Below are positions 3,295 through 55,264 of a DNA stretch of 64,000 nt, piece by piece. Position 1 is the stretch's first letter; each line of letters starts with the position of its first letter. Below the pieces are notes generated by a model. That model was not told the DNA's origin. It ran no database searches and worked only from the letters and a program-made list of their open reading frames with translations. This DNA comes from an uncultured Verrucomicrobiota bacterium (lineage in GTDB: Bacteria; Verrucomicrobiota; Verrucomicrobiia; Limisphaerales; JAEYXS01). Location: contig CAZPUL010000015.1 of assembly GCA_964589735.1 (NCBI GenBank), forward strand, positions 11,165-75,164, written 5' to 3'. Made by a program: the position numbers and the translations under genes.

Positions 3295-3996
3295 ATGGGA
3301 ACACAGGCACCATTGTTGCGGCTGGAAGGATTGTCCAAACAGTATCCTTCTGCGGAAGGGGCGGCGCCGCTCTATATCTTGAAAGAGGTCACGCTGGACA
3401 TCGCGGCAGGCGAGGCGGTGGCGATCATCGGGCCCTCCGGCTCGGGCAAGAGCACGTTGCTCAATGTGCTCGGCACGCTGGACCGGCCAAGCGCGGGCAA
3501 GGTGACCTTCGGCGGGCGCGAGGTGACGCAGCTCGATGAACTGGCGCTGGCAGCGTTGCGCAATCGCGAGATCGGTTTCATTTTCCAATCCCACCATCTG
3601 CTACCGCAATGCACGGTGCTGGAGAATGTGCTGGTGCCGACCTTGGCGGAAGGCAGCCAGCGCGGGCCGGAGAAGGTGGAGCGGGCGAAGAAGTTGCTCG
3701 CACGAGTCGGTTTGGCGGAGCGGTTGAGTCATCAGCCGGGGCAGCTCTCCGGTGGCGAACGTCAGCGCGTGGCGGTGGTGCGCGCCCTGATCAATGCGCC
3801 CAAGCTGGTGCTGGCGGACGAACCTACCGGCGCGCTGGACCGAGTGTCAGCGGATACGCTCGCGCAACTGCTGGTGGAACTGAACCGGGAGGAGGGTGTG
3901 ACGCTTATCGTGGTGACACATGCGCTGGACCTGGCGAAGAAGATGGGGCGGATACTGGAATTGCAGGACGGAAAACTGGTGGAGAAAAAGGGTTAA
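3295..3996 (+). CDS. ABC transporter ATP-binding protein (LolD/MacB-type)
   Basis: Walker A GPSGSGKST, signature LSGGERQR, Walker B LVLADEPT. Start taken at MGTQAPLLRLEGLSKQY (ATG 3295). Confidence 0.9.
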   Translation: MGTQAPLLRLEGLSKQYPSAEGAAPLYILKEVTLDIAAGEAVAIIGPSGSGKSTLLNVLGTLDRPSAGKVTFGGREVTQLDELALAALRNREIGFIFQSHHLLPQCTVLENVLVPTLAEGSQRGPEKVERAKKLLARVGLAERLSHQPGQLSGGERQRVAVVRALINAPKLVLADEPTGALDRVSADTLAQLLVELNREEGVTLIVVTHALDLAKKMGRILELQDGKLVEKKG

Positions 3997-4145
3997 CCAC
4001 AGATGGACACAGATCAACACAGATGGGGAATGGGGGGAGAAGTTGGGGGAACGTCCAACGCCCAACGTTCAACGTCCAACATTCAAAGCGGTGTGCGAAT
4101 GTTTCTGCACGCTATCTGTGTCCATCTGTGTCTATCCGTGGTTAA
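3993..4145. repeat. Composite inverted-repeat element: 34-bp arms of 3 x decamer ACACAGATNN around a core of 5 x heptamer YYCAACG
   Basis: Left arm ttaaccacagatggacacagatcaacacagatgg (3993-4026) matches the reverse complement of the right arm (4112-4145), ttaaccacggatagacacagatggacacagatag, at 28 of 34 positions. Core heptamers lie at 4054-4088. The element sits between the ABC ATPase and permease genes and overlaps the ATPase TAA stop. Confidence 0.85.
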
Positions 4146-7100: not shown

Positions 7101-7487
7101 CAGAACACGTATCTCAGCACGTTTCAGATCTTGGGCGGGCTTGGCCTGTTGCTCGGCAGCCTCGGCTTGGGCGTGGTGGTGCTGCGCAATGTGCTGGAGC
7201 GGCGCGGTGAACTGGCGCTGATGCAGGCGGTCGGGTTCCGCGCGCAGACCTTGAAGTGGCTGGTGGTGAGCGAGCATGGCGTGTTGTTGCTCGTGGGCCT
7301 GACGGTGGGGGTCGTGTCGGCGCTGGTCGCGGTGTTGCCCGCGTTGCTGTCGCCGGGAGCGGAGGTGCCGTATGCGTCGCTGGCGGTGACGCTCGGGGCG
7401 GTGCTCATCAGTGGTGGGGTGTGGACGCTGGTCGCCGCCTCATTTGCGTTGCGGGGTCAGTTGATGGATGGGCTGCGGAGTGAATAA
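4167..7487 (+). CDS. ABC transporter permease with duplicated FtsX domains (MacB/YbbP-like)
   Basis: 1106 aa. There are two blocks of four TM helices, each after a large extracytoplasmic domain, and it follows the ABC ATPase. The 547-aa antisense ORF was rejected. Confidence 0.85.
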   Translation: MMGYGTLVRRSLAYHWRAHLGVLLGAIVGSAVLIGALLVGDSVRASLKKLALLRLGQTEQALASNDRFFRAALAKEISTEVKTPVTPVVQVLGTASARGGEGRANKVQVQGVENGFWELAQQKPSFATIPDGSVVLNEGLARQLGVKEKEDVVFRVPKPSALSRDAPLASQEDASAALRVTVHAVVSDEEFGRFGLQASQVPPFNAFMPLAWLQQKLDIAGKANLLLVGKGTDEAALTASLKKHWQIADAQIELRDLKEVKAIEVRTPRVFLDPPMVEASQKAGANGQKILTYFANDLRLGTNTVPYSMVTAAGEPWVPAGLKDDEIVLGEWAAEDLSAKAGDTVTMTYYFVGIGRKLEERTNTFRVHSIVPLSGIYADRSLMPDFPGMTDAENCGDWDTGFPINMEAITPKDEKYWDDHKGTPKAFISLAAGQKLWANRFGDLTAVRYDSANVTTNQLAQAIQQQMDPASVSLSFLPVREQALKAVAQSQDFGGLFIGFSFFLIVAALLLMALLFQLGVEQRAREVGTLLAFGFTPKQVRNLLLGEGSALALIGGVLGAVGGIWYAQGMLYGLANLWRDAVGTSSLTFHAEPKTLVIGTIASFFVALITIWLAVRKQVQRPARELLAEGAEERRSVLEGAAKKGKAGIIAATCIVLGVAMVGWAKFGGEGSAAGLFFGAGGLFLIGGLAASAAWLNKLRDAGLRMTADQLAAHFHLNGLGIRNAVRRRKRSLATISLLACGSFLVVAVGANKLDATANATKRSAGTGGFAFIGDTTLAVVQDLNLKEGREFFGLDDKKLAGVSIVPFRVKDGDDASCLNLNRAQTPRLLGVNPQLLQEREAFTFAKVMSGVDKTAPWNALKNAAGSDEVAAIGDFNSIMWAMGKKVGDTLDFRDEQGRTFKVRIVGAVANSILQGNLLIDEAALVAKYPSEAGYRMFLIDAPAERATEVAATLTKALQNEGMELTPTAQRLNAYNAVQNTYLSTFQILGGLGLLLGSLGLGVVVLRNVLERRGELALMQAVGFRAQTLKWLVVSEHGVLLLVGLTVGVVSALVAVLPALLSPGAEVPYASLAVTLGAVLISGGVWTLVAASFALRGQLMDGLRSE

Positions 7488-7522
7488 AGGAGAAGATGGC
7501 GGCTACGGATTTGGGCAGGGCA

Positions 7523-7547
7523 GTGCGGATTGAGGAGCAATCCGCAC
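7523..7547 (+). terminator. Hairpin downstream of the permease gene (possible terminator)
   Basis: gtgcggattg-aggag-caatccgcac forms a perfect 10-bp stem 36 nt after the stop. The downstream tract agtttgaatt is only weakly T-rich. Confidence 0.35.
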
Positions 7548-8212
7548 AGTTTGAATTCACACTCCTTGATGAACGGGGCGGACCATCGGCGGGTAGCGCG
7601 CGGTCCACGAAGTTCGGTTTCGCACGGCCAAGGTCACACCGGGTGGTTACGCGGGCATGGCGGGCAGGCAACGATTGGGTGAAAGGGGGATAAACCACAG
7701 CCCCGACAAGTTGTCGGGGTGAAAATACTCAGAATACACAGAAAGCGAGAGGGAAAATGGCCGAAGGAGTCGATCCCTGAAATTTAGTCTCCATATAGCG
7801 CATATAGCTCATATAGGCATCACGCATCTCAGATTTCTAGGGCATTGTGGGCACGTCATGAAGAAGCTCAAAGCTCAAAGGAATCGTTAAAAGGGTTAAA
7901 GAGGTTGAATGGTGAACCGAGACGGGAAAGCCCTTGTGGGCGGGAAAAAACGAAATTTTGTCTCCATGGAGCTCACCGGGCGCACCGAAGCCTCACGGGT
8001 TCGGAGAAATCATGGCAGATTGGCGGTCAGAAACGGGAAGGCCCAGTGCGGTCCTGACCGGCAAATCAGGAAAACATAGTGCGGACCAAGAGCAATGAAG
8101 GTGAAGGGGTATGAAAGGTGAATCGTCTAATAAGGTGGCAGCGGATGCTTGGCCTATCCCTTTGACAGGGATGGGGCGGGGTGGTTTAACAGTTGTATCC
8201 CTCGGTAAACGC

Positions 8213-10864
8213 ATGTTTTCGGTGAAAAACAGTCTGTTTCAATGCGGTGTGACGGCAGCGGCGCTGGTGGTCTCAGCCCAAGCGGGTTGGGCGGCGAGCA
8301 AGAGCGAGCCTGTGTTCGAGCGGGATATCCGGCCCATCCTCAAGACGCATTGTTTTCATTGCCACGGCGAAGAAGAGAAACCGAAGGCAGGATTGGACGT
8401 GCGGTTGCGGCGGTTCATCGCGCAGGGCAGCAAGGACGGTCCGGTGCTGGTGCCGGGCAAGCGCAAGGAGAGCGCGCTGTATCTGGCGGTGCAGTCTGGC
8501 GAGATGCCGGAGGGCGAGAAGAAGTTGACACCGGAACAGGTGGAACTCATCGGCCGCTGGATCGACAAAGGGGCGAAGACCTTGCGGCCGGAACCGGAGA
8601 AGCTGGAGGGTTACTATTTCACGGAAGAGGAGCGGCAGCACTGGGCGTTTCAGCCATTGACGCAGCCTGGCGTACCGAAAGTTCAAAGCTCAAAGTTCAA
8701 GATCAACAATCCGATCGATGCGTTCATCGCGGTGAAGTTGAAGGAGAACAAGCTGACGTTTTCGCCGGAGGCGGACAAGGCGACGTTGATCCGTCGGGCG
8801 ACGTTTGATCTCACGGGCCTGCCACCCACACCGGCGGAAGTGGATGCCTTCCTCGCGGATAGTTCGCCGGATGCGTATGAGAAGCTGATCGACCGGTTGC
8901 TGGCATCGCCGCATTACGGGGAGCGTTGGGGACGGCACTGGCTGGACGTGGCGGGTTATGCGGATTCCGAGGGCATCACCGCTTCGGATGCAGTGCGCAA
9001 GCATGCATGGAAGTATCGGGATTACGTCATCAAGGCGTTCAACGAGGACAAGCCGTTCAACGAATTCATCATCGAACAACTGGCGGGCGATGAACTGGTG
9101 AAGCAGCCGTACAAGAATCTGCCACCCGCGGAGCAGGAGAAGCTGGTCGCGACGGGTTATCTGCGCATGGCGCCGGACCCCACGGGTGCAGGTGCGCCGG
9201 ATCAGAAGCTCGCGCGGAATCAGGTGGTGACGGATACGGTGAAGATCGTCTCCACTTCGCTGCTGGGCATGACGGTCGGGTGCGCGGAGTGTCATGATCA
9301 CCGGCACGACCCGATCCCGCAGGCGGATTTCTACCGGTTGCGTGCGGTGTTCGAGCCCGCGTATGACACGAAGAACTGGAAGGTGCCGAACGCGCGTCTT
9401 ATCTCTCTGCTCACGGATGAACAACGGGCGGCGGGCGATAAAGTGGAAGTGGAAGCGAAGAAGCTGGATGCCGAACGGCTCAAGAAACAGGAAGAGTTCA
9501 TCAGCGAAATCCTGGAGCTGGAACTGGCGAAGCGGGAGGAGGCTTTGCGCGAGCCCTTGCGCACGGCGTATCGGACCGCTGCGGCCAAGCGCACGCCGGA
9601 GCAGGTGAAACTGCTGAAGGGACATCCCACGGTGATGAACCTCTCGCCGGGTTCGCTCTATCTCTACAAGCAGAAGATGGCGGATGACCTGCAAAAGATC
9701 GCGGATGAAGCCGCGAAGGTGCGCGCGCAGAAGCCGAAGGAAGAATTTGTGAGCGCCTTGACCGAGCCCGGCGGCAAGGTGCCGGTGACGCAGATCTTTC
9801 ATCGCGGCGATCCGGATCAACCGAAGGCCGCGGTGAAACCGGGTGACCTGACGATCCTGGCCTCGTTGCGCAAAGTGGATCTGGCGGAAGATGACGAGGC
9901 GCTACCGACCTCAGGCCGTCGGCTGGCGCTCGCGAAAGAATTGACGGATGGAAAGCATCCACTGACGACGCGCGTGCTGGTGAACCGCATCTGGTTGCAT
10001 CACTTCGGGCGTGGGCTGGTGAATACGCCGGGTGATTTCGGCACGCATGGCGACAAGCCTAGTCATCCAGAATTGCTGGATTGGTTGTCATCGGAGTTCG
10101 TGGCGCAAGGCTGGAGTGCGAAGAAGCTGCACAAGCTCATCATGACCTCCACAGCGTATCGGCAGGAGTCAACGCGCGATCCGAAGAAGGAGCGCATCGA
10201 TGTGGAGAACCGCCTGCTTTGGCGCATGAACGTGCGGCGGCTGGAGGCGGAGGTCATCCGTGATTCATTGCTGGCGGTGAGCGGCAAATTGAATGCGAAG
10301 CTCTTCGGTGAACCGGTGCCGATCATGGAGGATGAAGCGGGTCAAGTGGTCGTCGGCATCGATACGAATGACACGGCGGGGCGGCCTTCGGGCAAGTTCA
10401 TCCCGCTGAATGGCGAGGAGTTTCGTCGCAGCCTGTATATCCAGATGCGGCGCTCGAAGCCGGTGGGTTTGCTGGAGACGTTCGACATCCCGGCGATGGA
10501 ACCGAACTGCACGATCCGCAATGCGTCCACGGTCGCGCCGCAATCACTGGCGCTGATGAACGGGGAGTTCGCGCTGGAGCAGACGAAGTATTTCGCCGAG
10601 CGCGTGGAGAAGGCGGCGGACAAGGACGCGCAAGTGGAGCTGGCGTGGAAGATCGCCTTTGGCGCGCCGCCGAGCATGGCGGAGGTGATGCAGGCGAAGG
10701 CGTTCCTGGAAAAACAGACGAAACATTTTGCGGCGAATCCGCCCGCACAACCCGCCCCGGCCAAAGGCAAGACGGCACCGCCTGCCCCCACGGCGGAACA
10801 TCTGGCGCTGGAGAGCCTCTGCCAGGTGTTGATCAGTGCGAACCGGTTTTTGTATGTGGATTGA
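8213..10864 (+). CDS. PSCyt1/PSCyt2/PSD1 protein (planctomycete cytochrome c + DUF1549 + DUF1553)
   Basis: CFHCHGEEEKPKAGLDVR heme-like motif, NPIDAFI (DUF1549), and a C-terminal ...CQVLISANRFLYVD typical of DUF1553. Start at ATG 8213 gives a signal peptide. Confidence 0.85.
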   Translation: MFSVKNSLFQCGVTAAALVVSAQAGWAASKSEPVFERDIRPILKTHCFHCHGEEEKPKAGLDVRLRRFIAQGSKDGPVLVPGKRKESALYLAVQSGEMPEGEKKLTPEQVELIGRWIDKGAKTLRPEPEKLEGYYFTEEERQHWAFQPLTQPGVPKVQSSKFKINNPIDAFIAVKLKENKLTFSPEADKATLIRRATFDLTGLPPTPAEVDAFLADSSPDAYEKLIDRLLASPHYGERWGRHWLDVAGYADSEGITASDAVRKHAWKYRDYVIKAFNEDKPFNEFIIEQLAGDELVKQPYKNLPPAEQEKLVATGYLRMAPDPTGAGAPDQKLARNQVVTDTVKIVSTSLLGMTVGCAECHDHRHDPIPQADFYRLRAVFEPAYDTKNWKVPNARLISLLTDEQRAAGDKVEVEAKKLDAERLKKQEEFISEILELELAKREEALREPLRTAYRTAAAKRTPEQVKLLKGHPTVMNLSPGSLYLYKQKMADDLQKIADEAAKVRAQKPKEEFVSALTEPGGKVPVTQIFHRGDPDQPKAAVKPGDLTILASLRKVDLAEDDEALPTSGRRLALAKELTDGKHPLTTRVLVNRIWLHHFGRGLVNTPGDFGTHGDKPSHPELLDWLSSEFVAQGWSAKKLHKLIMTSTAYRQESTRDPKKERIDVENRLLWRMNVRRLEAEVIRDSLLAVSGKLNAKLFGEPVPIMEDEAGQVVVGIDTNDTAGRPSGKFIPLNGEEFRRSLYIQMRRSKPVGLLETFDIPAMEPNCTIRNASTVAPQSLALMNGEFALEQTKYFAERVEKAADKDAQVELAWKIAFGAPPSMAEVMQAKAFLEKQTKHFAANPPAQPAPAKGKTAPPAPTAEHLALESLCQVLISANRFLYVD

Positions 10865-26469: not shown

Positions 26470-26499
26470 TTTGAACTTTGAGCTTTAAACTTTGAACTT
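26470..26499. repeat. Tandem heptamer array TTTGAAC TTTGAGC TTTAAAC TTTGAAC
   Basis: Four consecutive 7-mers begin 6 nt after the aroB stop. The reverse complement, GTTCAAA/GCTCAAA, matches the arrays at 7866-7880 and 8681-8701. Confidence 0.8.
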
Positions 26500-32156: not shown

Positions 32157-32174
32157 TACTATTCAGTTTGAGAT

Positions 32175-32335
32175 GGTAGGGCCCGTCTGTCCTCAGCGGG
32201 CCGTGGTGCGGATCGAAAGGCATGTCTTGAATTTCAAAACCAGCCTTTTAAACCGCTCTCGTCGTTGGAATGTTCTCAAACTTTCGATGGATTCAGGCTT
32301 CGACAGCGGCCCGCTGAGGACAGACGGGCCCTACC
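32175..32335. repeat. 161-bp element with perfect 29-bp terminal inverted repeats (GGTAGGGCCCGTCTGTCCTCAGCGGGCCG)
   Basis: 32175-32203 is the exact reverse complement of 32307-32335. It lies between two convergent genes. Related copies are at 49003-49163 and 53861-54008. Confidence 0.9.
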
Positions 32336-32351
32336 AACGCACTGCTTTCAA

Positions 32352-36402: not shown

Positions 36403-36610
36403 GCCCTCTCCCCGTTGAGGGAGAGGGAGGAGAGGCGTTAAAGCGTTCTCAACCGGCAAGGCCTTCTTAGGGCCTCACGTTCAAGCGTCGCATACGCGAC
36501 GCTAAATCTTTTTAACGCGGAAACCGTGGGTTGAAACCCACGGCTACCATCGTCTGGTGGCTACGCCACCCAAAAAACCAGCCATGTCCGACTCGCTGTG
36601 AAGCCGGACA
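36403..36610. repeat. Cluster of at least 6 hairpins (REP-like) in the aceE-aceF spacer
   Basis: Stems at 36403-26 (ccctctccc/gggagaggg), 36458-74, 36484-503 (agcgtcgc-atac-gcgacgct), 36524-43 (ccgtgggt-tgaa-acccacgg), 36556-70 (ggtggc-tac-gccacc) and 36585-610. Confidence 0.85.
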
Positions 36611-48990: not shown

Positions 48991-49002
48991 ACCACCTAGC
49001 CA

Positions 49003-49163
49003 GGTAGGGACGCGTTGCCGCGCGTTCCCTTGCCAGACCTGAGCGCACGTGCTTGCAGATACTTGGGCAACATTCGAGAGATTCTTATTTTTCCATGTTC
49101 CTGCTTGCGTCATTCGAAGATCAAACGGAGCAGTCAGGGAGCGCGGAGCACCGCGTCCCTACC
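49003..49163. repeat. 161-bp element with GGTAGGGACGCG / CGCGTCCCTACC termini
   Basis: 12-bp perfect terminal inverted repeat. It has the same length and the same GGTAGGG...CCCTACC ends as 32175-32335, but the interior differs. Confidence 0.7.
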
Positions 49164-49166
49164 AAG

Positions 49167-49667
49167 CTAAGGGCACGTCCGTTTGCATTCCCGCACGTAA
49201 TAAATATCCCACGCATCCTCGCGCACCGGCACAAAACCATGGCGCTGATAAAAGCGATTTGAGGCGCTCTCGCGCAAGGCGCCGACGTGGATGGGCATTT
49301 GTTTTTCTTCCGCCTGCGCGATGAGGTGCTGCATCACGAAGGAACCCACGCCGCGCGATTGGCTCTGCGGATGGATGTACAGATGGTCCAGATGAAACCC
49401 ATCCGCCAACGGACGAAACGTGTAGAACCCGATGCGCTCACCCTCCAGCACAATGAATTGTGTGTGCTCCGGATAGAACGTACTGCGCAGTCGCTCCCGC
49501 GCCCGCTCCGGGTCAAATCTGCCGACACGCTCCAAACTCTCCCGCATCGCGGCGATGCGGAGAGCGACGAGGGAGTCGAAGTCATCCGTGGCTACGAACT
49601 GAAAAGTAATCACGGCCAACACAAGACAGTTTTCTCCAGAATTGCATCGCGTAAGTCCCACTCTCAC
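49167..49667 (-). CDS. GNAT-family N-acetyltransferase
   Basis: Acetyl-CoA motif QSQSRGVGSFVMQHL and a C-terminal RFYQRHGF. GTG 49667 overlaps the upstream stop (GTGA). An alternative GTG at 49613 gives a more typical N-terminus. Confidence 0.8.
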   Translation of the reverse strand: MRVGLTRCNSGENCLVLAVITFQFVATDDFDSLVALRIAAMRESLERVGRFDPERARERLRSTFYPEHTQFIVLEGERIGFYTFRPLADGFHLDHLYIHPQSQSRGVGSFVMQHLIAQAEEKQMPIHVGALRESASNRFYQRHGFVPVREDAWDIYYVRECKRTCP

Positions 49668-51043: not shown

Positions 51044-51132
51044 CCGTCACTACGTGACGGAGTGTTTTGTATCGCGTGACCGTGGGTTGAAACCCACGGC
51101 TAGCCATCGGTGTTCGCTACGCGAACTTTTTT
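51044..51132. repeat. Three-hairpin repeat element (second copy)
   Basis: ccgtcac-tac-gtgacgg (51044-60), ccgtgggt-tgaa-acccacgg (51080-99) and gttcgc-tac-gcgaac (51112-26), then a T6 run. It matches the architecture at 36484-36577. Confidence 0.85.
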
Positions 51133-51544: not shown

Positions 51545-53587
51545 ATGTTCGTTTATCCGCGTCAGTTTGAGGTGATTGTGGTGGGGTCCGGTCATGCGGG
51601 CGTTGAGGCTGCTTTGGCGGCGGCGCGCATGGGGGCCAGCACGCTCATGCTCACGATCAATGCCGATACCATCGGCCAGATGTCTTGCAACCCGGCCATC
51701 GGCGGCTTGGCCAAGGGACATCTCACGCGCGAGATCGATGCCCTCGGCGGCGAGATGGGCAAGTGCACGGACATGACGGGCCTGCAGTTCCGCATGCTCA
51801 ATACCAAGAAGGGCCCGTCCGTGTGGGCGCCCCGGGCGCAGTGCGATAAGAAGGCCTACCAGTTCCGCATGAAGTGGATCTGCGAACGCCAGGAGAATCT
51901 GGACATCAAGCAAGGCCAGGCCGCGAAGCTCCTTTTCCGCGACGGCGAGGTGTATGGCGTGGAGACCACCCTCGGTGTGCAGTATCTCGGCAAGACGGTG
52001 GTGATCACCACGGGCACGTTCCTCCGCGGCCTCATGCACATCGGCAGCACCCAGCAGCAGGGCGGTCGCGCCGGTGAAGCCGCCGCCATGGGCCTGTCCG
52101 GTTCGCTCAAGGAACTCGGGGTGGAACTCGGTCGGCTGAAGACCGGCACTCCTCCGCGGCTTCTGAGTCGCACGATAGATTTCAGCAAGACCGAGAAGCA
52201 GGACGGTGATGAGCCGGTGCCGTACTTCACCTATTGGAAAGACGATTTGTTCCACGTGGAACATTCCGGCATCAACCCGCGCGACATCGGCCACTCGAAT
52301 GGCAAGTATCCGCCCGGCTCCATCCTCGACCGCATCAACGGTCAGATGAACTGTTTCATCACCTACACCTCGGACAAAACCGCCGAGCTGATCCGCGCGA
52401 ATCTCCACAAGTCCCCGATGTATTCCGGCGTGATCGAGGGCGTCGGCCCGCGCTATTGCCCGTCCATCGAGGATAAGATTGTGCGGTTCGCGGAGAAGGA
52501 GCGGCACCAGATTTTCCTCGAGCCCGAGGGCATTTCCACGGACGAAATCTACGTGAACGGCTTCTCCACCTGCCTGCCTTTCGAGGTGCAAGTGGAGATG
52601 GTGAAGTCCATCATCGGCTGCGAAAACGCCGAGATCCTCCGCCCCGCCTACGCGGTGGAATACGACTTTTCCTTCCCCACGCAACTGCATCCTTCGCTCG
52701 AAACGAAAGTCTGCCGCAACCTGTTCCTCGCGGGCCAGATCAATGGCACGTCCGGTTACGAAGAGGCTGGGGCGCAAGGACTTATGGCGGGTATCAATGC
52801 CGCGCGACGGGTCCAGAATAAGGAACCCATCGTGCTCCGCCGGGACCAGGCTTACATCGGTGTGTTGATCGATGATCTCGTCACGAAGGGCACCACGGAG
52901 CCGTATCGGATGTTCACCTCGCGCGCGGAGTATCGACTGCTCCTGCGCCAGGATAACTGCGATGCGCGCCTGTCCCAGCTCGGCTACGACATCGGCCTCC
53001 TGCCGAAGCGCAACTACGATAAGTTCGTGGCCAAGCAGCAGACCATCGACGAGGAGATGGCGCGCTTGAAGTCCGTGCGCGTCGGCACGCTCACGCTTTC
53101 CCAGATGCTCCTGCGGCCGGAGGTGACCTATAAGGATTTGCCGACCGAGAATCAGAACGGGACCTTGAGCGGAGAGATCATCGAGCAGATCGATATCCTC
53201 CATAAGTACTCCGGCTACATCGAGCGCCAGGAGGAAGAGGTCGCCAAGTTCCGCACCATGGAGGATAAGCAGATTCCGCCTTGGCTGGACTACGCGAAGA
53301 TTCCCAGCCTCCGCACTGAGGCGCGTCAGAAGCTGACGAAAATCCAGCCGGCCACCCTCGGCCAAGCACTCCGCATCTCGGGCATCTCGCCGGCGGATGT
53401 CACCCTCATCATGGTCGCCATGAAGCGTGGGAACTCGGGCGGCGAAACTGGGAATCCTGTCCCCCTCCCACCAACTGCACCCGTTAAGGTCCCGACCGCT
53501 GCCTGTGGGGATGACGCGGATGTGTGCGGGGCGGCCGAGCACTTCGAGGGGCCGAGCGGTCACAACTCCTGTTGTGGGGATCTGTGA
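51545..53587 (+). CDS. mnmG: tRNA uridine 5-carboxymethylaminomethyl modification enzyme MnmG (GidA)
   Basis: VIVVGSGHAGVEAALAAARMG FAD motif, GVIEGVGPRYCPSIEDK and MFTSRAEYRLLLRQDN. Start at MFVYPRQFE. It carries an internal insertion and a 51-aa C-terminal extension. Confidence 0.95.
   Translation: MFVYPRQFEVIVVGSGHAGVEAALAAARMGASTLMLTINADTIGQMSCNPAIGGLAKGHLTREIDALGGEMGKCTDMTGLQFRMLNTKKGPSVWAPRAQCDKKAYQFRMKWICERQENLDIKQGQAAKLLFRDGEVYGVETTLGVQYLGKTVVITTGTFLRGLMHIGSTQQQGGRAGEAAAMGLSGSLKELGVELGRLKTGTPPRLLSRTIDFSKTEKQDGDEPVPYFTYWKDDLFHVEHSGINPRDIGHSNGKYPPGSILDRINGQMNCFITYTSDKTAELIRANLHKSPMYSGVIEGVGPRYCPSIEDKIVRFAEKERHQIFLEPEGISTDEIYVNGFSTCLPFEVQVEMVKSIIGCENAEILRPAYAVEYDFSFPTQLHPSLETKVCRNLFLAGQINGTSGYEEAGAQGLMAGINAARRVQNKEPIVLRRDQAYIGVLIDDLVTKGTTEPYRMFTSRAEYRLLLRQDNCDARLSQLGYDIGLLPKRNYDKFVAKQQTIDEEMARLKSVRVGTLTLSQMLLRPEVTYKDLPTENQNGTLSGEIIEQIDILHKYSGYIERQEEEVAKFRTMEDKQIPPWLDYAKIPSLRTEARQKLTKIQPATLGQALRISGISPADVTLIMVAMKRGNSGGETGNPVPLPPTAPVKVPTAACGDDADVCGAAEHFEGPSGHNSCCGDL
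52248..52263. promoter_or_regulatory. parS-type site (perfect palindrome TGTTCCACGTGGAACA) inside mnmG
   Basis: Exact 16-bp palindrome. The half-site TGTTCCAC equals the left half of the B. subtilis parS TGTTCCACGTGAAACA. Confidence 0.7.
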
Positions 53588-53588
53588 T

Positions 53589-53604
53589 TGTTCCACGTGG
53601 AACT
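53589..53604. promoter_or_regulatory. parS-type site (TGTTCCACGTGGAACT, 15/16)
   Basis: The core GTTCCACGTGGAAC is perfect. It starts 2 nt after the mnmG stop. Confidence 0.65.
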
Positions 53605-53645
53605 TTTTTGATTTACCACGGAGGCATGGGGATAGGGGAGTTCTA

Positions 53646-53675
53646 GCCACGGATTAAACACGGATCACACGGATT
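53646..53675. repeat. ACACGGAT decamer-type array (3 units)
   Basis: gccacggattaaacacggatcacacggatt. This is the same family as the arms of the 3993-4145 element. Confidence 0.7.
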
Positions 53676-53690
53676 GGGGAAGTGAGGGTT

Positions 53691-53770
53691 GGCCCGCTAA
53701 AGACACGAAAACGGGGATAAAGGAAAACGGAGGCCCGTGTGGTTCAGGACATGGGTAACACTCGGAAGAG
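53691..53770. repeat. Left copy of an ~80-bp inverted duplication flanking the parS region
   Basis: ggcccgctaaagacacgaaaacggggataaaggaaaacggaggcccgtgtggttcaggacatgggtaacact... matches the reverse complement of 54550-54629 at roughly 9 of 10 positions with one indel. Confidence 0.85.
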
Positions 53771-53805
53771 GGACCGTTTCATAGTATAGTTAGCACCCGC
53801 TAGAT

Positions 53806-53821
53806 TGTTCCACGTGGAACA
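53806..53821. promoter_or_regulatory. parS-type site (perfect palindrome)
   Basis: TGTTCCACGTGGAACA, extended to the 18-bp palindrome ttgttccacgtggaacaa. Confidence 0.7.
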
Positions 53822-53860
53822 ACGCAGATCATGAGGACGGTCGTTTAGCCCACGGATGCT

Positions 53861-54008
53861 GGGGACCGTCTGTCCTCAGCGGGCCGGGGTCCGGTAACGT
53901 AGCGCATACCCGAGGAACCGAGTCGTAAGCGCCAGACTTCACCTTGCTTTGATTCCCTTGTTCACCCTTGGCTTCGACGCGGCGCGCTGAGGACAGCGCC
54001 GCCCTACC
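53861..54008. repeat. Degenerate copy of the GGTAGGG...CCCTACC inverted-repeat element
   Basis: Left arm ggggaccgtctgtcctcagcgggccg and right arm ggcgcgctgaggacagcgccgccctacc. The right-arm context ggcttcgac...gctgaggacag...ccctacc matches 32298-32335. Confidence 0.7.
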
Positions 54009-54137
54009 ACCCTCGGCCATTGCCCCCTGATTGATTAATCCGTCTCCAACCAAGGGATTATGAGTCCCCTACTCAATCCCTTGTCTATCCACTACTCACT
54101 TGATAGACCAGAGGATTGAAAATTCTCATACTGTCAA

Positions 54138-54506
54138 ATGTTCCACATGGAACATTCCAGACTTTCCGTGACATATCCCCTGCACCCCGGTCTAAGGGTT
54201 ATAGCAATTGAAAGGCTCTCAATGCGCGAACTCGCTTTACTGGACACGCTGGGCGTTTGCCTCCTTTTGCTCCTCAGCTTGGTCTTGCCCCTGATGCTGA
54301 GCTTACGCCCGCCGCAGGATGCGCAGCACAAGAAAGCGTGCTTGAAGGTAGTTTGGATTGGGCAACTTTTGGGTGCATTAGCGGGAATCGGCATTTACGC
54401 CTCGGCCACCGTGACCCCTTACGCGATGGTGTTGGGGACCCTAGGCTGCCTCATCTGCGCCCGGATACTCTCCAAAAAACTCCGCTCCGGCGAGATTAAC
54501 GGGTAA
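54138..54506 (+). CDS. Doubtful small membrane ORF between parS sites
   Basis: 122-aa ORF whose ATG lies within the parS variant. It has hydrophobic stretches, and an internal start at 54222 (MRELALL) is possible. No family recognised. Confidence 0.3.
   Translation: MFHMEHSRLSVTYPLHPGLRVIAIERLSMRELALLDTLGVCLLLLLSLVLPLMLSLRPPQDAQHKKACLKVVWIGQLLGALAGIGIYASATVTPYAMVLGTLGCLICARILSKKLRSGEING
54139..54154. promoter_or_regulatory. parS-type site variant (TGTTCCACATGGAACA)
   Basis: One central substitution (CA for CG) relative to the palindrome. Confidence 0.55.
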
Positions 54507-54519
54507 ATTGGGCCAGAAA

Positions 54520-54535
54520 TGTTCCACGTGGAACA
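54520..54535. promoter_or_regulatory. parS-type site (perfect palindrome)
   Basis: TGTTCCACGTGGAACA, 14 nt inside the right copy of the inverted duplication. Confidence 0.7.
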
Positions 54536-54549
54536 ATGGGATTATTCAA

Positions 54550-54629
54550 CCTTGGAAGTGTTACCCTTGTCCTGAACCACACGGGCCTCCGTTTCCCTTT
54601 AACCCCGCTTTTCGTGCCTTTAGCGGGCC
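54550..54629. repeat. Right (inverted) copy of the ~80-bp duplication
   Basis: The reverse complement reads ggcccgctaaaggcacgaaaagcggggttaaagggaaacggaggcccgtgtggttcaggacaagggtaacact... Confidence 0.85.
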
Positions 54630-54646
54630 AAATCCCCTTCCTCAAA

Positions 54647-55099
54647 CTACTTCACTGTCTCAAATACCCGCCGAATCGTCTCCACGCGACGACGATTGGT
54701 GCCGAGATCGGAGTAGCCCAAACGTGAGGCGGAACGTATGTGAATTACCTTCTTATTCTCATCAATCAGGAACTCCACGTCATCCACAAAGCCGAACACC
54801 AGCGTCTTGAACTCCACGTGCATGTAGACGCGGTCGTCCTTGGCTATCTTGGTGCCAGGCAGGGCATCCATCGTTAGTTTCAGACGCAGCATCGCTTCCT
54901 CCGTGGGGCAGGTGAACTTTAGGGGCTCCACCTTTTGATTCGCCCGCTCCGCCTGGCTGCAGACGCAATTCGGCGTCTCCGGGCATTCGGGCAGCTTGCC
55001 GTCCATGGGGCGAATCTTGATGGCTTTCGGTGAAACCACCACAATCACCACCCGCAAGGCGATGAACGCCAGCACAATCAACAAGAAAGTTTGCGCCAT
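54647..55099 (-). CDS. DUF1499-domain protein
   Basis: CPETPNCVCSQ and SASRLGYSDLGTNRRRVETIR motifs typical of DUF1499. Start at MAQTFLLIVLAF. Confidence 0.75.
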   Translation of the reverse strand: MAQTFLLIVLAFIALRVVIVVVSPKAIKIRPMDGKLPECPETPNCVCSQAERANQKVEPLKFTCPTEEAMLRLKLTMDALPGTKIAKDDRVYMHVEFKTLVFGFVDDVEFLIDENKKVIHIRSASRLGYSDLGTNRRRVETIRRVFETVK

Positions 55100-55264
55100 A
55101 CGTTTGTTCCCTCTCACACGGTCCAGCATACGCTGACCAACCTAGGCTTGAGATAGAGCGAGTCAAATGCCAGTTTAAGGAATAAGGAAAAATAAGTTAA
55201 GTCCTAGTTTGGGACAAACGCTCGATACACTCATAACAACCTTATAATTAATGAGTTGCGTCAA

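Follow-up and report, generated by a model that had tools for sequence, protein, structure and literature searches.

Origin-proximal clusters of parS sites, as described for ParABS systems (PMC7333895), are one of the closest known counterparts of the locus analysed here; the others are insertion sequences (IS) of the IS481 family, and the solo ends and miniature inverted-repeat transposable elements (MITEs) that derive from IS. The locus lies within a 64-kb stretch of DNA from an uncultured Verrucomicrobiota bacterium (the whole of which we call the window), where the spacer between mnmG (gidA) and a DUF1499 gene carries two blocks of about 75 nt, L and R, in inverted orientation, each with a parS palindrome on its inner side (Table 1). 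It resembles the described clusters in its five palindromes of the type TGTTCCACGTGGAACA within 2.3 kb by mnmG; it differs in the blocks, of which described parS architectures have none and which are absent from related parS clusters too. The original prediction took the mirrored pair for organised centromere architecture, or for a promoter or small RNA tied to parS, and knew of no described equivalent. We show that the block core is an IS481-type end repeat, and we think it probable that the blocks descend from the end of a decayed IS and the DNA flanking it, which local duplication and gene conversion have multiplied and inverted. The feature derives from IS481-family ends and is of a kind already known, the solo or derivative IS end, which supplies the equivalent thought to be lacking.

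In particular, the block cores are the terminal-repeat unit of IS481-family elements (IS3/IS481-type DDE) and stand to each other as the two ends of such an element do. The IS in question, which we characterise from metagenome loci, has a transposase between its ends and two 22-bp repeats per end with a 25-nt period, whereas the window has one repeat per end, a native interior and no target-site duplication. Solo IS ends and MITE-like derivatives are likewise short non-coding DNA that keeps only transposase-binding ends (150–900 bp for derivatives of this same IS in metagenomes). The blocks differ from these in that they are not dispersed; they occur in one spacer with a shared non-IS flank, and therefore have spread by local segmental duplication or gene conversion and not by transposition. 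Further, the IS elements treated by Tobes & Pareja (2006; PMC1525189) include some that target repetitive extragenic sequences, e.g. IS1397 and ISPpu9. The likeness to these lies in one end of our IS, which almost always stands beside a short periodic array; the targets of IS1397 and ISPpu9 are repetitive extragenic palindrome (REP) hairpins, whereas here they would be purine-rich arrays of about 7-nt period, a preference deduced from the flanks. Such arrays flank parS in this clade; their association with the IS end would account for the accumulation of IS ends in the parS cluster. A literature search on parS in Verrucomicrobia and on IS481 MITEs found nothing specific.

The inverted pair of blocks

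Block L and the reverse complement of block R are identical at 69 of 74 positions (93%) with one 1-nt indel, the pairwise alignment extending from TTGGCCCGC to GTAACACT. A repeat search reported two pairs of arms, 53708–53762/54557–54611 (55 nt, 93%) and 53689–53721/54599–54631 (33 nt, 85%), which are a single repeat split by that indel. The inverted duplicate of about 80 nt with one indel is thus real, within slightly shifted limits. The 25-nt core, like the 22-nt one, is present exactly two times in the window and absent from its dinucleotide-preserving shuffles. Moreover, L001 and L002, two Logan assemblies made independently for this strain, have both blocks at 100% identity, and the pair is therefore not an assembly artefact. 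A perfect parS does lie on the inner side of each block, as had been proposed, at 43 and 21 nt with the corrected limits; the distances of 36 and 14 nt given earlier arose because looser block limits were used.

The block core is an IS481-type end repeat

The 22-mer AGTGTTACCYATGTYYTGAACC was recognised as recurring in mnmG-downstream spacers of relatives, and the inner 22 nt of each block (GGTTCAGGACAWGGGTAACACT) are the unit of which the terminal inverted repeats in IS481-family IS are built. A metagenome scan with a slightly degenerate 22-mer returned at least 120 loci (L015–L134). Among the matches listed, the typical locus has two 22-mers, 25 nt apart, on the minus strand and, some 1.2–1.5 kb further on, two copies on the plus strand; the DNA between encodes a transposase of about 390 amino acids with helix–turn–helix (HTH) and rve domains. 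Its best NCBIfam match is transpos_IS481, with 208 bits over the whole 284-position profile against a curated cut-off of 224, and its Pfam domains above threshold are rve, rve_3, HTH_32, HTH_28 and LZ_Tnp_IS481. Adjacent minus-then-plus pairs of repeats enclose at least 300 amino acids of a transposase homologue in 41 of 53 cases among the matches listed, the other 12 being mostly internal-deletion derivatives with interiors of 103–835 bp. The transposase family has thousands of homologues, mostly on contigs of 1.3–2 kb, as expected because a multicopy IS breaks assemblies. The consensus of the IS end on the transposase-start side is GGTgCA-GGTTCAGgACATaGGTAACACA-tTA-GGTTCAgGACATAGGTAACACT, and that of the far side GGCG-CaGTCAGGACATcGGTAACACT-TTT-GGTTCAGGACATgGGTAACACT.

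The left 22-mer of the window (AGTGTTACCCATGTCCTGAACC on the minus strand) equals, without a mismatch, the inner repeat in the consensus of the far-side IS end, the one away from the transposase start, and the right one (AGTGTTACCCTTGTCCTGAACC) departs from the consensus at one position. They are oriented minus then plus, like the two ends of complete IS copies, with the sides that face the interior of an IS directed towards the parS segment. Terminal inverted repeats are thus present at both ends, with one repeat per end in place of the usual two: when the blocks were searched for a second 22-bp repeat with position weight matrices built from 52–70 IS ends, the position expected for it scored only within the top 2–9% of random 30-mers, which is unconvincing. 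In two direct block copies of relatives (that of L139 and b2 of L143, see below) GGCGTG precedes the 22-mer, resembling the IS terminus GGCG-[CT][AG]GTCAGG.

A complete IS481-family element was rejected, there being no transposase between the ends and no target-site duplication. A tblastn search of the window with two transposases of the family gave a best E of 0.8 and no match within 53.6–54.7 kb, and tblastn and blastn searches of the window with five IS copies found no remnants of an IS interior. Direct target-site duplications were found neither at 53689/54631 nor at 53738/54581, where the flanks are weakly inverted instead. In viral contigs the 22-mer had no match. Once the repeats proved to flank a transposase gene, other candidates for the 22-mer were set aside, namely DnaA boxes or an oriC, a sigma-54 or extracytoplasmic-function (ECF) promoter, iterons, and ends of the Tn7 or Mu type.

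None of the 120 IS loci among the matches listed contains a parS. The possibility raised at the outset, that the block is a dispersed repeat found at many unrelated sites away from parS, therefore holds for the core and fails for the 75-nt block as a whole. As to the lineage of the window, the relative L011 (mnmG 87% identical at the nucleotide level) has a contig that breaks 3 kb from the spacer, exactly at an IS end of the canonical double-repeat form, which suggests that this lineage harbours the IS in several copies. More generally, the scan reveals an abundant and apparently uncharacterised IS481-type element, one end of which adjoins short 7-nt-periodic arrays.

Transposase-less, MITE-like derivatives of the IS were also seen in soil and freshwater metagenomes, at L024 1053–1225, L072 1311–1530, L104 1947–2118, L133 3402–3638 and L036 975–1454 (interiors 103–386 bp). 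A fragmented transposase was found at L102 in a low-GC host, and the 22-bp end repeat is therefore conserved across very different genomes.

The outer part of the block

The outer 52 nt of the block, TTGGCCCGCTAAAGRCACGAAAA(G)CGGGGWTAAAGGRAAACGGAGGCCCG, are purine-rich and array-like, and match nothing in any of the listed IS loci. They resemble short arrays (of the CACGGAT, CGCAGAG and CGCAAAG types) that follow parS in relatives and occur elsewhere in the window; the CACGGAT array upstream of block L is conserved in L143 (26/26 and 30/32) and present in L014. The 19-nt junction of outer and inner part (GGCCCGTGTGGTTCAGGAC) had eight matches in 185,579 species genomes of GTDB, all by chance (24–33% identity outside the seed). 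A dispersed MITE was accordingly rejected as a candidate, the copies in the 64-kb window and in some 100 kb of related loci being local only and the junction scan giving chance matches only.

The far-side IS end adjoins an array of 30–40 nt with 7-nt periodicity in 38–49 distinct flanks among the matches listed (examples are L017 at about 725–770, L032 at about 390–435 and L056 at about 1565–1610). The lag-7 self-match at this flank is 0.52–0.56, compared with about 0.26 elsewhere and 0.32 at the other end. An array followed by a 22-mer is hence the normal context of the far-side IS end and matches the layout of the block. The sequence of the array varies even among copies of one IS subfamily, and, judged from the flanks, it would reflect a preference of the IS for arrays as targets or else be a part of the IS that is itself hypervariable. 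That the IS lies in the loop of an array hairpin was considered too, and strong periodicity was found in one flank only.

Intergenic array hairpins of this kind, made of a short array (e.g. TTAACCACAGATGGACACAGATCAACACAGATGGGGA), a loop of about 80 nt and an inverted array, are seen in the window at 3996–4145 and also at 4050–4080, 7724–7880, 8678–8700 and 26470–26499. To our knowledge they have no described function. The loop sometimes has a heptad array of its own (e.g. AACGTCC, four times). Relative L142 has such hairpins at 7160–7290 and 7690–7850, and similar elements flank parS in relatives.

Variation among close relatives

Relatives were ranked by the nucleotide identity of their mnmG to that of the window, and their mnmG-downstream spacers were compared. 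L143 (92.2%) has three full blocks, two of them direct orthologues of block L (b1 and b2, at 7177–7247 and 7433–7494) and the third an inverted orthologue of block R by DUF1499 (7585–7650). L140 (92.6%) has the right copy only, with an outer half that has diverged almost beyond recognition, and L139 (90.5%), which lacks DUF1499, has the left copy only, with the same 14-nt deletion as L143-b2. In L013 (87.4%) block R is represented essentially by its 22-mer alone. L142 (89.0%), L011 (86.7%) and L135 (77.5%) have neither block nor 22-mer and three to five parS, and the more distant L014 (75.9%) has five 22-mers within its own parS cluster.

All seven full or partial block copies (in four genomes) sit in the parS cluster downstream of mnmG, and neither the remainder of the window nor some 100 kb of related loci yielded another full block. 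The block is nonetheless no constant accessory of parS, being absent from L142, L011 and L135 and one-sided in L139, L140 and L013; since these relatives have parS clusters, the mirror arrangement is dispensable and variable. Of the proposed centromere architecture, the tie of block to parS within this genus-level clade is thus retained, whereas a functional role is not supported, given the relatives in which blocks are absent or one-sided.

The direct block copies belong to a repeated module of parS, TTTTTGA..CACGGAGG, TTAGCCACGGATTAAACACGGATCACACGGATTGGGGAAGGAGAGGGT array, block and spacer. In L143 this module stands twice in tandem, and a mirrored version is found there as well as in the window. 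The window module (53589–53805) aligns over its full length with both tandem modules of L143, following module 1 through the body of the block and module 2 downstream of it, as unequal recombination between tandem copies would give. Blocks L and R of the window are 93% identical to each other, and 89 and 86% identical to their L143 orthologues (b1 and R within L143, 82%); since the identity of L to R exceeds that to any orthologue, the arms of the window appear to have been copied or gene-converted from each other recently. L014 has an independent 288-nt tandem module of parS, array and 22-mer. These comparisons show the block as confined to this spacer, with a copy number and orientation that vary among close relatives, and place it, together with parS, within a module duplicated locally.

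Relatives with one block or none have DNA orthologous to that between the blocks; there is no transposase at the locus and the interior is native DNA. This bears on the alternative that the segment 53689–54631 (or 53738–54581) is a non-autonomous IS481-type derivative, mobilisable in trans, that carries parS and a small gene. The 22-mers do have the mutual orientation of complete IS ends, a short span (838–943 bp) with IS-type inverted ends and no transposase is what we observe, and an interior of 794 bp would fit among the transposase-less derivatives of metagenomes (103–835 bp). We nevertheless consider such a derivative distinctly improbable. The interior is syntenic, its MITE, parS and small gene being found in L139 with the left block only and in L140 with the right block only; in place of a target-site duplication the flanks weakly continue the inverted repeat; each end has a single repeat; both ends are of the same type and share 52 nt of non-IS flank; and neither the window nor some 100 kb of related loci contain a second copy.

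Origin of the mirrored blocks

We suggest the following course of events for a fossil IS end spread by local duplication. Each block would consist of one 22-bp transposase-binding repeat of an IS481-family end together with some 50 nt of array-like, purine-rich DNA, of the sort that this IS family typically abuts. An ancestor of the genus would have taken an IS insertion beside an array in the long non-coding parS cluster downstream of mnmG, and the transposase gene and most of the element would later have been lost. The remaining end would then have become part of a local repeat unit of about 220–300 nt (parS, CACGGAT array, block, spacer), and would have hitch-hiked in segmental duplications, inversions and gene conversions. 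The unit, to judge from the comparison of relatives, has undergone tandem and inverted duplication, recombination, homogenisation and deletion, in ways that differ between lineages; the mirror pair of the window would be one such state, with block L looking like a recombinant of the two tandem modules of L143. A parS would stand beside each block because it shares the duplicated unit and is dense in the spacer, and the block itself would do no work for ParB. If so, an apparent centromere architecture is explained by a known process, IS decay with local segmental duplication in a long permissive intergenic region, and the locus provides an example of how parS copy number can change between close relatives, through tandem or inverted duplication and unequal recombination of modules of about 200–300 nt.

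Several points weigh against this course of events. The initial insertion and the later deletion lie beyond direct observation, and we infer them; only one repeat per block is recognisable; and the intact IS copies of the source genome are deduced from a relative. Further, the 22-mer has a mean pairwise identity of 88.7% with no indels among the seven copies, and the outer 52 nt one of 69.5%, or 55.5% with gaps counted; even decay would be expected of an entirely neutral relic, unless mutation is faster in the low-complexity outer part. The five 22-mers of L014 all lie in its own parS cluster, in an orientation opposite to that of the window clade, and the clustering of 22-mers exceeds what we would expect by chance (combined estimate across loci about 0.01, which is rough and uses assumed non-coding fractions). 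Faster slippage of the low-complexity outer half, together with a preference of the IS for parS-adjacent arrays, can account for both the uneven decay and the clustering.

The same observations would also fit a retention of the solo 22-bp repeats as useful sites, bound by the HTH domain of the IS transposase, by a domesticated relative of it or by another host factor. Such sites might act as roadblocks or insulators to the sliding and spreading of ParB that bracket the parS cluster, as decoy or immunity sites against further IS, or as part of a site that regulates the small gene lying between them. Within the block, the 22-mer is conserved best, as just described; in L140, where the outer half is almost lost, it still matches the other six copies at 18–20 of 22 positions; and every solo 22-mer of the clade lies within a parS cluster (this is so for five genomes of the genus, and independently for L014). 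In agreement, tightly bound proteins are known to attenuate ParB spreading (reviewed in PMC7333895). Considering, on the other side, that the parS clusters of L142, L011 and L135 have no 22-mer and others have it on one side only, that it points one way relative to parS in the window clade and the other way in L014, that its distance to parS varies from 18 to 43 nt, that the same 22-mer is plainly an IS end in at least 120 loci with no parS among the matches listed, and that the binding protein is hypothetical and the decay of the outer half explicable by its low-complexity, slippage-prone sequence, we regard retention as unlikely, if with an appreciable chance of being right. A stricter form of this idea, in which solo 22-bp sites were co-opted beside parS under selection, as ParB boundaries or as immunity or decoy sites, while the cluster grew by module duplication, we hold to be a little less likely again. 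Were the conservation of the 22-mer to reflect selection, a transposase-binding site would have been recruited to the centromere region; were co-option true, an IS relic would be a working part of a bacterial centromere.

Finally, we argue against the block being a promoter or small RNA tied to parS. The blocks do lie in the same orientation relative to their own genes and could be read as elements of the 3' untranslated region, and L139 and L143 both conserve a stretch with TATAGT that lies between block L and parS 53806. Yet the blocks have no Rfam match, either at the gathering threshold or at E ≤ 1; a search for tRNA and tmRNA found none; single-sequence folds of both strands of both blocks are no better than those of shuffles (z −0.65 to +0.41); and the alifold consensus of the seven copies reaches −1.36 kcal/mol, with a compensatory change in one of eight predicted pairs and no covariation-supported helix. 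In the seven-copy alignment, inspected by eye, the GGCCCGC/GCGGGG stem of the single-sequence fold is broken with no compensation. A sigma-70 promoter scan found no site, and the sole terminator-like site was parS 53589 with its T-run. A small RNA, promoter or terminator element functionally coupled to parS is accordingly very improbable.

The parS cluster and the contents of the spacer

The mnmG–DUF1499 spacer (53588–54646; 1,059 bp) contains four parS, and a fifth lies within mnmG. With up to three mismatches allowed to the 16-bp palindrome, five sites occur between 52248 and 54535 where 0.22 would be expected by chance. The palindrome agrees with the parS consensus, TGTTNCACGTGAAACA, at 15 of 15 specified positions, the palindromic partner of N left aside. 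The sites noted originally, including a third variant (TGTTCCACATGGAACA) between the blocks, are all present; the one 2 nt after the mnmG stop and the one within mnmG had been overlooked. The palindromic 16-bp sites by mnmG, conserved in relatives and predicted from sequence to bind ParB, appear to be ordinary chromosomal parS. No parB gene was found in the annotated part of the window, the remainder of which is ordinary chromosome (genes for pyruvate dehydrogenase, lipoate ligase, rhomboid, a trpD-like protein, MdoG and others). Judged by the homologues of its MnmG, the organism falls within Verrucomicrobiota and is Pedosphaera-like.

Table 1. Positions of the blocks and of their surroundings in the window
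Feature	Position	Strand	Description
mnmG (gidA)	51545–53587	+	Left neighbour; Pfam GIDA, 1.6e-159; 680-aa (amino acid) gene call in L001
parS	52248–52263	.	Perfect; inside mnmG, nt 704–719 of the gene
parS	53589–53604	.	15/16; 2 nt after mnmG stop; opens the direct module (53589–53805)
CACGGAT-type short array	53649–53680	+	Array of three units; lies before block L in the module
Block L	53689–53762	+	52-nt purine-rich, array-like outer part plus 22-nt IS-end repeat; 93% inverted repeat with block R
22-nt repeat unit, left	53741–53762	-	0 mismatches to the 22-mer consensus; IS-interior side faces right, towards parS 53806
parS	53806–53821	.	Perfect; inner side of block L, 43 nt away
MITE-like inverted-repeat element	53855–54009	.	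GGTAGGG...CCCTACC type; second copy at 32169–32341; unrelated to the blocks
parS variant	54139–54154	.	1 mismatch
Small membrane-protein gene	54222–54506	+	94 aa; 50 representative homologues of the same length, best E = 2.5e-34
parS	54520–54535	.	Perfect; inner side of block R, 21 nt away
Block R	54557–54631	-	Inverted copy of block L; ends 16 nt from DUF1499 stop codon
22-nt repeat unit, right	54557–54578	+	1 mismatch to consensus; IS-interior side faces left, towards parS 54520
DUF1499 gene	54647–55129	-	Right neighbour, convergent with mnmG; Pfam DUF1499, 2e-37

The mnmG-internal parS is identical at 16 of 16 positions, and at the same place in the gene, in 12 of 12 relatives (L011–L014 and L135–L143), down to 76% nucleotide identity of mnmG, and is kept even in L136 and L137, genomes with no other parS nearby; synonymous sites there are therefore frozen, which suggests that selection acts on this parS itself. 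The parS at 53806 and the spacer before it have orthologues in L139 and L143, and the order of parS, about 20 nt and 22-mer at block R is common to L143, L140 and L013. Block L begins 101 nt downstream of the mnmG stop. Given the density of parS in the spacer (four in 1,059 bp), we estimate the probability of a parS within about 45 nt of a given block end at about 0.17 per end, so such proximity is not improbable.

The parS just after mnmG is followed by TTTTTTGATT (region 53589–53613), the sole terminator-like match in 53400–54800; judging from this layout, the palindrome may double as the terminator hairpin of mnmG.

The one open reading frame between the blocks, originally called doubtful, is a real gene for a 94-aa membrane protein. 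The protein belongs to no Pfam family, and the gene is syntenic downstream of mnmG in L139 and L140; it is native to the spacer and not IS-derived. It is bracketed by 21-nt direct repeats that contain parS (54136–54156 and 54517–54537; AAATGTTCCAC[A/G]TGGAACA[T/A]T), and likewise in L139 and L140.

The decayed inverted-repeat element reported between the blocks was also confirmed, as a MITE-like copy that occurs in the spacers of L139 and L140 too. Its family measures about 170 nt, with the termini GGTAGGGCCCGTCTGTCCTCAGCGGGCCG...CGGCCCGCTGAGGACAGACGGGCCCTACC, and possibly has a further copy in the window at 48997–49169.

A hairpin motif, GGGATTATGAGTCCCC(T), lies at 54054–54083 and is conserved in the spacers of several relatives (L011, 5749–5783; L013, 4773–4802; L142, about 7325–7395 and about 7545–7580, in both orientations). 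Additionally, a REP-like hairpin, ACCGTGGGTTGAAACCCACGGCTA, occurs twice in the window, at 36523–36566 and 51079–51122, downstream of unrelated genes.

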